From Escherichia coli (GTDB taxonomy: Bacteria; Pseudomonadota; Gammaproteobacteria; Enterobacterales; Enterobacteriaceae), in assembly GCF_030384885.1 (NCBI RefSeq), contig NZ_CP128613.1: a DNA stretch of 64,000 bases; one strand, written 5' to 3'. Position 1 is the first letter of the stretch; every line of letters starts with the position of its first letter. Shown in pieces: positions 2,857 through 51,677 of this stretch. Made by a program: the position numbers and the translations under genes. Under the pieces are notes generated by a model. It had not been told where the DNA came from and made no database searches. It saw only the letters and a program-made list of their open reading frames with translations.

Positions 2857-3753
2857 TTATTCCTTGTCTAAAACCTGACGAATAAAGCCGCCGTGTTGAT
2901 CCAGGCGTTTTTTAGCTTCTGCGGCATCGAGATTTTTCAGCACCATCACAATGGCCGTTTTGCAGTTGCGCTCGCAGGCAATTAACGCCGCTTCCGCTTG
3001 TTCGGCGTTACATCCGGTGGCGTTTTTAACGATATTGACCTGGCGCACATGCAATTTTTCGTTGGTGGCGACCACATCGACCATCAGGTTGCCGAACACT
3101 TTGCCGGATTTAATCATCAGCCCGGTAGAGAGCATATTGAGCACCAGTTTCTGCGCTGTGCCTGCTTTCATTCGCGAAGAACCGGTAACCACTTCGGCAC
3201 CAACCACCGGAGTAATAGCAAACTCAGCGGTGGTTGAAACGGCGCTCCCCGGATTACAGGAAATGCCCACTGTGCGGCAACCGAGTTGGCGTGCGTATTC
3301 CAGCCCGGCAATCACATACGGAGTGCGACCACTGGCAGCAATACCAACCACCACATCCTGTGCGGTTAAGCCGATATTTTTTAGATCGTTAACGCCACCT
3401 TCCCGGCTATCTTCTGCGCCTTCCACCGCGTGCTGAATGGCATATTCACCGCCAGCAATCAAACCAACCACCAGGCCCGGTTTGACGCCGTAGGTCGGCG
3501 GACATTCGCTGGCATCAAGAATACCCAGACGACCGGAAGTCCCCGCACCGATGTAAATCAGTCGACCGCCGCCGCTTACCTGGGCGTGGATAACATCGAT
3601 CGCTGCGGCGATATCCGGCAGTACACGCTCAACGGCGAGTGGTACGGTTTTATCTTCATCGTTGATAATCCGGCACATTTCCAGCGTTGATACGCGGTCA
3701 ATTTCAGCCGAAGCGGCGTTCGAGCCTTCGGTAATCATCTTTTCAAGTTGCAT
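2857..3753 (-). CDS. murQ: N-acetylmuramic acid 6-phosphate etherase
   Basis: 298-aa SIS-domain ORF recognised as MurQ; upstream of murP. Confidence 0.9.
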
Positions 3754-49027: not shown

Positions 49028-50266
49028 ATGGCTGACACTCGCCCTGAACGTCGCTTTACGCGTATTGATCGTCTCCCACCCTACGTTTTTAACATTACCG
49101 CTGAACTGAAAATGGCTGCGCGTCGGCGCGGCGAAGATATTATCGATTTCAGTATGGGTAACCCGGACGGTGCGACCCCGCCGCATATCGTCGAAAAATT
49201 ATGTACGGTGGCCCAGCGACCGGACACGCATGGTTATTCCACCTCGCGTGGTATTCCGCGGTTACGTCGCGCCATTTCCCGCTGGTATCAGGATCGCTAC
49301 GACGTCGAGATCGACCCGGAATCAGAGGCTATCGTCACCATTGGCTCGAAAGAGGGGCTGGCGCATCTGATGCTGGCGACGCTGGATCACGGTGACACTG
49401 TACTGGTGCCTAATCCAAGCTACCCGATTCATATTTACGGCGCGGTGATTGCCGGGGCGCAGGTACGCTCAGTGCCGCTGGTGGACGGTGTCGATTTCTT
49501 CAACGAACTGGAACGCGCCATTCGCGAAAGTTATCCGAAACCGAAGATGATGATCCTCGGCTTCCCGTCGAACCCAACCGCGCAATGCGTGGAACTGGAA
49601 TTCTTTGAGAAGGTTGTGGCGCTGGCGAAACGCTACGATGTGCTGGTGGTCCATGACCTGGCCTATGCCGATATCGTCTACGATGGCTGGAAAGCGCCGT
49701 CAATTATGCAGGTGCCGGGTGCACGAGACGTGGCGGTCGAGTTCTTTACGCTGTCGAAAAGCTACAACATGGCGGGCTGGCGTATCGGCTTTATGGTCGG
49801 TAACAAAACGCTGGTCAGTGCGTTGGCACGTATTAAAAGCTATCACGATTACGGTACTTTTACGCCGTTGCAGGTGGCGGCGATTGCGGCACTGGAGGGC
49901 GATCAACAGTGCGTGCGCGATATTGCCGAACAGTACAAACGCCGCCGCGATGTACTGGTTAAAGGGCTGCATGAAGCAGGCTGGATGGTCGAAATGCCGA
50001 AGGCTTCGATGTATGTCTGGGCGAAAATCCCGGAACCATATGCGGCCATGGGCTCACTGGAATTTGCCAAGAAACTGCTTAACGAAGCGAAGGTCTGTGT
50101 CTCTCCAGGGATTGGCTTTGGCGACTACGGCGACACCCATGTCCGCTTTGCGCTGATTGAAAACCGCGACCGTATACGCCAGGCGATTCGTGGAATTAAA
50201 GCGATGTTCCGTGCCGACGGTTTACTACCCGCCAGCAGCAAACATATTCACGAAAACGCGGAATAA
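49028..50266 (+). CDS. alaC: Glutamate-pyruvate aminotransferase (class I aminotransferase)
   Basis: 412-aa PLP aminotransferase ORF recognised as AlaC/YfdZ. Confidence 0.85.
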
Positions 50267-50284
50267 ACACCATCGCCAGAAATG

Positions 50285-50313
50285 CAAACAGGAGCCAGAT
50301 GGCTCCTGTTTTT
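50285..50313. terminator. Bidirectional terminator between alaC and ypdK
   Basis: aaacaggagccagatggctcctgttttt: hairpin flanked by A- and T-tracts. Confidence 0.6.
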
Positions 50314-50330
50314 CATTGCACAGTTTGCTT

Positions 50331-50402
50331 TTAGATCATCAGGGCAAAAGTACCGGCCCAAACGATGACCATAAAAGAAATGCCCATAAAGAAATATTTC
50401 AC
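50331..50402 (-). CDS. ypdK: 23-aa hydrophobic microprotein (GTG start)
   Basis: My own translation of the minus strand: MKYFFMGISFMVIVWAGTFALMI*; ggagag RBS about 7 nt upstream; matches my memory of E. coli YpdK. Confidence 0.5.
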   Translation of the reverse strand: MKYFFMGISFMVIVWAGTFALMI

Positions 50403-50756
50403 TTTACATCTCTCCGCGTAATTACTGTTACGCCTGAATGACTTCATTACACCTGATACAGTGAGTTGACACCGGGCAAAACGACATTGAAAGTCCATAT
50501 TTTACCGTGGGCATCACCCCAGAATTCTGAGCTAAACTGCTCGAGACGGCGCTAATGTACGCCTAAAACTGAAACGAGACAAGAGGCATTTTCTTATTTA
50601 CTTTTAGTAACTTACAGGTGTCTCATATCGGCGACAGTTTAATTTCTGACGGTAATAATTAGAGATTCAGCGAAGGAAAAAACCTTAAGAAAAAAGCCAT
50701 AAAAACCATGAGGTTATTATGGCTGATTTGAGGAGGGAAAGAGTAAGAGCAGTTTG

Positions 50757-51677
50757 TTAAATGTATAACGACGATTCTCCCACCGGGCGCGTTTTAAAGC
50801 GACGGTGGATCCAGAGGTACTGCTCCGGTGCGCGCATAATCTCTTTCTCGATAATCTTGTTCATATAGGCAGCGGCTTGATTTTCATCTGCCGGGTAGCC
50901 TTCCATTTCAGGGGTGATGAACAACCGATATCCGCTGTAATCCGTTTTTCTGACCATCGTTACGGTCAACATGGCTGCGCCAGAGAGACGAGAGAGGACA
51001 TAGGTGCCATTGGTTGTAGCAACATTTTCTACCGCAAAGAACGGTGCGAAGGAGCTACCTTTACGACCATAATCCTGATCGGGAGCAAACCATACGGCTT
51101 CACCTTTCTTCAGCGCACCGACAATACCGCGCAGATTATTTCTGCCGATCATCGCTTTGTTAGAGCGCATGCGACCACGGGTCTGCACCCATTCCATCAG
51201 CTGATTATTATGCGGACGATAGGTGGCCATCATTGGCTGACATAGTCCCATCACGCGGCCGCCCAATTCCAGCGACATAAAATGGACGCCGACAACCATC
51301 ACGCCACGATTCTGCAGTTGTGCGCGTTTGAGGTTATCCAGCCCTTCAACATCAAACCATTTACGTACGCGACTGTCGGGCCAGAACCATGCCATGCCGG
51401 TTTCTACCAGCGCCATGCCGAGTGAACGAAAGTTTTCGGCAATCATCTTCTCGCGCTCTTCAGCAGAATGCTGTGGGAAACAAAGTTCCAGGTTCTTACG
51501 GGCGATAGATTCACGACGTTTCAGGAATGGTCGCGCCATCGTGCCGATACGCGTGCCGAGAAAACAGAGAACAGGGTAAGGAAGCTGTACCCAAAGCCAG
51601 AGTACACCAAGCCCAAACCATGTGAGCCAGTAGCGAGGATGTAGAAACTCGCGGGAAAATTTGCATTTTGGAAACAT
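50757..51677 (-). CDS. lpxP: Lipid A biosynthesis palmitoleoyltransferase (cold-induced)
   Basis: Track ORF trimmed to MFPKCKFSREFLHPRYWLTW... giving 306 aa. Confidence 0.8.
   Translation of the reverse strand: MFPKCKFSREFLHPRYWLTWFGLGVLWLWVQLPYPVLCFLGTRIGTMARPFLKRRESIARKNLELCFPQHSAEEREKMIAENFRSLGMALVETGMAWFWPDSRVRKWFDVEGLDNLKRAQLQNRGVMVVGVHFMSLELGGRVMGLCQPMMATYRPHNNQLMEWVQTRGRMRSNKAMIGRNNLRGIVGALKKGEAVWFAPDQDYGRKGSSFAPFFAVENVATTNGTYVLSRLSGAAMLTVTMVRKTDYSGYRLFITPEMEGYPADENQAAAYMNKIIEKEIMRAPEQYLWIHRRFKTRPVGESSLYI

Follow-up and report, generated by a model that had tools for sequence, protein, structure and literature searches.

The ypdK gene and its reading frame

The window, a stretch of 64,000 nucleotides of Escherichia coli DNA, carries the small gene ypdK on its minus strand at 50331-50402. 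Translation reads from a GTG (50402-50400) through 23 codons (GTG AAA TAT TTC TTT ATG GGC ATT TCT TTT ATG GTC ATC GTT TGG GCC GGT ACT TTT GCC CTG ATG ATC) to a TAA stop (50333-50331) and gives the product MKYFFMGISFMVIVWAGTFALMI. A Shine-Dalgarno sequence, GGAGAG (50410-50415, minus strand), ends 7 nt 5' of the GTG, with its GGAG core 9 nt from the start codon; CGGAG is invariant in 52 of 52 and 49 of 49 aligned Enterobacteriaceae leaders.

This is an already annotated E. coli gene and not a new one. The RefSeq CDS 'ypdK, membrane protein YpdK' (WP_010723117.1) corresponds exactly to 50331-50402 (locus 3092-3163), the coordinates having been taken from a record 100% identical to the window in which ypdK is flanked by alaC and lpxP. 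The peptide matches the NCBIfam equivalog family NF033437 ('YpdK') with 57.5 bits against a cut-off of 30, residues 1-23 aligning with profile positions 1-23, and no Pfam family was found for it. Compared with YpdK of E. coli K-12 (NF033437, WP_010723117.1), coordinates, sequence, GTG start and context are the same. The 521 nt around ypdK were matched in 5422 of 5426 complete E. coli genomes, and every sampled row was annotated ypdK. The gene has reportedly been annotated since the small-protein screens of 2008, and tagged YpdK protein is said to have been detected by Hemm et al.

The first-pass annotation had read a 23-aa GTG-initiated peptide with a ggagag ribosome binding site on the minus strand and had called it YpdK. 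The reading agrees with the sequence, and the name is borne out by the RefSeq CDS at identical coordinates and by the NF033437 match; a micro-gene of this kind is recognisable from raw sequence alone. That the peptide was described as invisible to the open reading frame track is a matter of threshold, since at a minimum of 20 aa the frame is listed, its ORF then running for 55 aa from an upstream ATG (50498).

That longer ORF was rejected as the coding unit, its upstream portion being unconserved, and the in-frame stop present at codon -2 in 30 loci rules out a longer N-terminus. An internal start at M6 was likewise discarded, as K2 and Y3 are invariant and the Shine-Dalgarno spacing suits the GTG. 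There is also an out-of-frame ATG (50409-50407, minus strand), 7 nt 5' of the GTG, which is kept in 42 of 54 Enterobacteriaceae loci. A stop follows it directly in E. coli (TAA) and in ten others, forming an ATG-TAA or ATG-TGA 'start-stop' (window 50404-50409), and in 30 other loci the same bases give an in-frame TGA at codon -2. This ATG lies only 2 nt from GGAG and so is probably not a start; as a coding start it was rejected, its frame being open in 67 of 67 sequences but with a pN/pS of 2.1.

Conservation and coding evidence

Comparative loci were collected through AlaC rather than YpdK to avoid bias, from 80 species-representative genomes of Enterobacteriaceae, Erwiniaceae, Yersiniaceae and Pectobacteriaceae, and gave 79 loci with sufficient sequence. 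An intact YpdK frame was found directly downstream of, and convergent with, alaC in 74 of the 79, so that the disruption in close relatives which the first-pass annotation had named as the outcome that would speak against its call was not what the comparison returned. All 74 intact copies start with GTG and have a GGAG-type Shine-Dalgarno sequence (10-14 nt upstream in families other than Enterobacteriaceae), and their length is 23 aa (54 copies) or 24 aa (20 copies).

A 23-codon ORF on its own is no better than chance, and it is the comparative evidence that makes ypdK real. Across 67 distinct ypdK ORF sequences the column entropy at codon positions 1, 2 and 3 was 0.57, 0.18 and 1.13, and pooled pN/pS was 0.27 in the ypdK frame, compared with 1.16 and 2.11 in the shifted frames. 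Purifying selection acts on the YpdK sequence in at least three Enterobacterales families. Although the peptide barely exceeds one helix, eleven of its 23 residues show little or no variation across three families (K/R2, Y3, M6, G7, S9, W15, G17, T18, F19, L21 and M22 among 40 distinct peptides). Within E. coli, the 101 nt comprising the Shine-Dalgarno sequence and ORF are ≥ 99% identical in 5422 of 5423 records and the surrounding 521 nt in 173 of 5423, with a median of one place per genome.

Erwinia endophytica (locus L063) provides a natural example of ypdK loss. A decayed copy lies approximately 60 to 170 nt downstream of the alaC stop, where the C-terminal half (NWVGVFYLML*) remains; the N-terminal half, GTG and Shine-Dalgarno sequence are gone and an in-frame TAG is present. 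Among the alaC-anchored loci, ypdK was wholly absent from Buttiauxella brennerae, Lonsdalea, Symbiopectobacterium and an oddly labelled contig. This contig (L079, NZ_AUIE01000007.1), titled Pseudomonas resinovorans DSM 21078, has an AlaC 91% identical to that of E. coli, unexpected in a Pseudomonas, and may reflect contamination, mislabelling or horizontal transfer.

Neighbours and the predicted shared terminator

On the plus strand alaC ends at 50266, facing ypdK, and between the two stops lies a hairpin (50286-50311, GC core 50289-50308), 22 nt 3' of the ypdK stop, with alaC on its opposite side. The core consists of CAGGAGCC/GGCTCCTG, with a T-run at 50309-50313 on the plus strand and TTTGCATTT at 50288-50280 on the minus strand. 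Fold energies were -24.3 kcal/mol (z -4.0) on the minus strand and -21.5 kcal/mol (z -3.45) on the plus strand. Among compact loci, with no more than 160 nt between the two stops, all 69 distinct inter-stop sequences contain a hairpin, with paired changes from CAGGAGCC/GGCTCCTG to CAGGCGCC/GGCGCCTG; it is near-identical across Enterobacteriaceae, and Erwiniaceae have a different GC-rich stem in the same place. With a GC-rich stem-loop and a T-tract on each strand, the element has the make-up of a bidirectional intrinsic terminator common to ypdK and alaC, and termination is predicted in both directions. The first-pass annotation had placed the end of ypdK beside a bidirectional terminator, with which the folding of both strands agrees. 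A simple terminator scan did not list this shared hairpin, probably because the stem runs on, through A-T pairs, into the T-tract.

Extra DNA separates the ypdK and alaC stops in some loci, so the shared-terminator arrangement is not universal. It amounts to approximately 700 bp in Serratia (L069, L076 and L080) and occurs also in L026, L031 and L041; in L026 and L031 the 150 to 211 bp between the stops include a long palindromic element.

The upstream side of ypdK is far from constant. Only Escherichia, some Citrobacter, Salmonella and Enterobacter have lpxP on that side, and clustering of the nearest upstream ORFs from all loci gave 36 unrelated clusters. Judged by gene order, the conserved partner of ypdK is alaC, convergent and with a shared predicted terminator, and not lpxP. 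The description of the gene as lying between alaC and lpxP is therefore true in the window, but the lpxP half of it is not conserved among genera. The constant neighbour alaC is annotated as alanine transaminase, which is not a membrane protein.

Directly after the lpxP stop there is a hairpin followed by a T-run (50690-50724, minus strand; AGCCATAA...TTATGGCT and then TTTTTT), which is probably the terminator of lpxP itself and the upstream boundary of the ypdK unit. The annotated sRNA Tpke70 (PMC6172242 Supplementary Data) maps from 50693 on the plus strand, with one mismatch over its first 45 nt; with an annotated length of 436 nt it would extend to approximately 51128, antisense to the 3' part of lpxP. 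As Tpke70 opens with the reverse complement of the post-lpxP hairpin, this 'sRNA' may begin at a bidirectional terminator. Tpke70 was rejected as a ypdK mRNA since it lies on the opposite strand and starts at 50693.

Candidate promoter and transcription unit

Approximately 215 nt upstream of the GTG were aligned for 49 Enterobacteriaceae sequences. Besides CGGAG, the only invariant non-coding blocks in this alignment are CTTGT and GTACATTAG, at a fixed spacing. The second contains a candidate -10 hexamer, TACATT (50554-50559, minus strand), in which block T, A, A, T, T and A are invariant in 49 of 49 sequences. A candidate -35 hexamer, TTGTCT (50577-50582, minus strand), lies 17 nt from it, with TTG invariant in 49 of 49 and the spacing fixed. 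A GTAnATT[AT] motif was found in 70 of 74 loci, and Erwiniaceae and Serratia keep a GTAnATTAGC block. TTGTCT-17-TACATT is thus a candidate ypdK promoter, called from consensus and conservation; with 8 of 12 consensus matches it fell under the threshold of the promoter scan (9 of 12). Upstream of the -35 there is an A/T-rich tract (50588-50610, minus strand), conserved in the alignment as ACTAAAAnTAAATAAAAAAAT, which resembles an UP element and may act as one.

Transcription from this promoter would start approximately 7 nt after the -10 hexamer, near 50547, giving a predicted leader of approximately 145 nt in E. coli, the same as the median across species. This is close to the boundary at -148 indicated by the tiling array discussed below. 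Since the upstream neighbour varies (36 clusters) while the promoter block is invariant, ypdK appears to be its own transcription unit.

The motif CTCTATA(C/A)TCAG was considered as a sigma-S-like promoter and rejected, being present in only 29 of 54 leaders, degenerate in Escherichia and inside the predicted transcript. It occurs in loci L013 to L054 (window equivalent 50452-50470, minus strand), 46 to 58 nt before the GTG in 28 of 29 distinct leaders and 69 nt before it in one, and is also degenerate in the Citrobacter freundii group. As it lies directly 3' of a long-range leader helix described below, its role may be that of an RNA element or of a second promoter. Approximately 40 nt upstream of the -35 is an inverted repeat, TGTCGC-N6-GAGACA (50619-50636, minus strand), whose second arm is GCGACA in other strains and which is retained across genera with paired changes (TGTCGT...ACGACA in L008). 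The repeat might bind a regulator or form a hairpin.

Structure of the leader

The predicted leader contains two helices that have changed in a paired manner. The first abuts the Shine-Dalgarno sequence (50416-50433, minus strand; GCGTAA/TTACGC with a 6-nt loop in E. coli). It was found with RNAalifold, and an alignment-free search showed a stem of 4-7 bp ending at the base before GGAG in 47 of 49 distinct Enterobacteriaceae leaders. Arm sequences differ and loops are unconserved between these leaders, and all four RNAalifold pairs show double-sided changes, with 96.4% of cells paired. The second is a long-range helix between GGGGTGATGC (5' strand, 50511-50520, minus) and the GGTGTCAACTC region (3' strand, 50463-50472, minus), found with RNAalifold and pair counts. 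It has eight pairs, with 92% of cells paired and double-sided changes in five, and in E. coli three of the eight pairs are G-U wobbles. Taken together, the 12 leader pairs over 49 sequences were 93.5% paired, compared with 28 to 58% when the partner was slid. They had 62 double-sided changes, compared with 21 ± 3 in shuffles, and their covariation score was reached by none of 500 shuffles.

No Rfam family matched the leader, two sub-threshold matches attributed to chance being returned at E ≤ 1 in 49900-51000, and no tRNA was found there. The structured, conserved leader may be the one item at this locus that is undescribed.

Two further structures were rejected. A helix sequestering the Shine-Dalgarno sequence with codons 3-6, seen in the E. 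coli fold, had a z of only -1.95, and the variable base of GGAGNG showed no covariation. A 5'-proximal leader hairpin has arms that, by eye, vary in a paired way, but its energies were no better than those of shuffles (mean z -0.53).

The long-range helix surrounds a segment that is variable or deleted between genera. In other genera this segment (50473-50510, minus strand) holds a hairpin of the GAGAnAATTCTC type, from which the present E. coli differs, and it is absent in the E. coli representative of the comparative set (L002) and in Pseudocitrobacter. A 29-aa ORF (50428-50517) that starts in the 5' strand of the helix and crosses the variable segment is unconserved.

Evidence of expression

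A tiling-array study named ypdK among 18 ORFs of Hemm et al., and its supplement lists a same-strand transcript (2494795-2494997) over ypdK (2494943-2495014), which was up 1.06 log2 after UV. The 5' boundary of this transcript lies 148 nt upstream of ypdK, approximately at window position 50550, within the limited resolution of such boundaries. No LexA box that could explain the UV response was seen by eye at ypdK.

In Supplementary Table 1 of the PIRT-Seq study, ypdK is listed under 'Ribo-ret only', that is, with a start-site signal in retapamulin profiling, and without signal in the fusion assay or in proteomics. An initiation signal is therefore on record, which answers to the translation signal whose absence, according to the first-pass annotation, would count against the gene. 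Table S1 of a survey of enterobacterial microproteins (PMC11188072) contains YpdK clusters from six genera (Citrobacter, Escherichia, Kosakonia, Erwinia, Pantoea and Yersinia); their peptides begin with V (GTG), and a transmembrane segment is predicted in them.

The YpdK peptide and its proposed role

YpdK has a GRAVY of 1.73, residues 3-23 have a mean hydropathy of 1.99 and K2 is the only charged residue. By composition it is predicted to be a single-pass membrane peptide with one bilayer-spanning hydrophobic stretch, in agreement with the single-TM peptide proposed in the first-pass annotation. It is highly probable, on the evidence as a whole, that ypdK is transcribed as a gene of its own and encodes a single-helix inner-membrane peptide of 23 residues. 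According to this model, transcription would proceed from the gene's own promoter, TTGTCT-17-TACATT, starting near 50547, and would end at the hairpin that also terminates the convergent alaC. The predicted transcript would be approximately 265 nt long, including the structured leader of approximately 145 nt, and ribosomes would initiate at the GTG through the GGAG 9 nt upstream. YpdK would then span the inner membrane, presumably with its N-terminus (fMet-Lys) in the cytoplasm.

AcrZ, MgtS, MgrB, PmrR and SgrT are small inner-membrane regulators of Enterobacterales, and KdpF and CydX are small subunits of complexes. All of them have known partners, and the genes of several lie within the partner's operon or next to it. 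YpdK is like them in having fewer than 50 residues and one hydrophobic helix, in coming from similar screens and in belonging to the same bacteria. It is unlike them in being encoded by a monocistronic unit that stands alone and in having 23 residues, which is essentially just the helix. No paper on a function, partner or phenotype of YpdK was found in the literature searched. A report on YohP (27 aa), a model small membrane protein, indicates that such peptides can insert post-translationally via SRP (PMC7549839); YohP resembles YpdK in size class and composition.

From its composition and by analogy with other small enterobacterial membrane proteins, YpdK may insert into the inner membrane and pack against a larger protein there through Y3, M6, G7, S9, W15, G17, T18, F19 and M22, and so might tune the partner's activity or stability in the manner of AcrZ, MgtS, MgrB, KdpF or CydX. 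Our best guess at what the peptide does is that it modulates a larger inner-membrane protein by helix packing. The remark in the first-pass annotation that peptides of this kind often modulate membrane proteins is reasonable as an analogy. The invariant positions are not confined to a single side of the helix (mean resultant 0.21). This spread is better explained by contacts around several sides of a buried helix, or by a homo-oligomer, than by one contact face, and it counts against a simple one-sided helix-helix interface. Searches for what orphan small membrane proteins bind, or for novel control by leader RNAs, could reasonably include ypdK.

An ATG start is one G-to-A change away but occurs in no intact copy (0 of 74). 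As synonymous sites are near saturation (pS 0.61), this points to selection for a weak start. The universal GTG, together with the structured leader, suggests that the amount of YpdK is kept low or regulated.

Possible control by the leader and alternative explanations

The leader might itself be a cis-regulatory element, undescribed so far, that tunes synthesis of the peptide to a signal, with the GTG as part of the same dosage control. This is a possibility that we advance tentatively. The element would comprise approximately 145 nt behind an invariant promoter, with at least two covarying helices; it is kept from Escherichia to Erwinia and Serratia and belongs to no Rfam family.

A second explanation is that the transcript is a dual-function RNA, in which the structured leader of approximately 145 nt acts itself, by base-pairing or by titrating a protein, and the peptide is a second product. 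SgrS/SgrT and Spot 42/SpfP are examples of such RNAs. The leader is twice as long as the ORF, and the promoter and both helices are conserved with covariation across genera in an RNA without an Rfam match. However, no single-stranded seed is conserved across all families, half of the leader is variable or deleted between genera, and no evidence of a target or of Hfq or ProQ was found, which makes this explanation improbable. Since the peptide is under strong selection, any role of the RNA would be an addition to the membrane peptide rather than its replacement.

YpdK could also be a membrane-damaging peptide like those of type I toxin systems, with translation restrained by the structured 5' UTR. 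The mRNAs of tisB, dinQ and zorO, like that of ypdK, combine a long, structured 5' UTR with a very short ORF for a hydrophobic product, and both the weak start codon kept everywhere and the rise of the transcript after UV might be taken the same way. Type I toxin loci are patchy and multi-copy; ypdK, in contrast, is single-copy and has been inherited vertically at a single syntenic position in three families. It has no evident overlapping antisense gene (Tpke70, the only sRNA annotated nearby, lies > 140 nt upstream of the predicted start and runs away from it, and the convergent alaC ends at the hairpin between the two stops), no LexA box was seen by eye, and its Shine-Dalgarno sequence is not sequestered in the conserved structure. 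A toxin-like role is accordingly unlikely, and more so than a dual-function RNA.

That the ORF has no functional product and is conserved only as part of an RNA or terminator element beside alaC might be argued from its tiny size, its place next to a highly conserved terminator and its absence from proteomics and the PIRT-Seq fusion assay, but this is scarcely credible given that the codon-position test contradicts a non-coding explanation (third-position variation and a pN/pS of 0.27 in the ypdK frame only), that start codon, Shine-Dalgarno sequence and length are conserved in 74 species, that the Erwinia endophytica copy shows what loss looks like and that a Ribo-RET signal is on record.

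The reading of ypdK as a leader peptide or attenuator uORF was rejected, the predicted terminator lying 22 nt after the stop and the next gene, alaC, being convergent.
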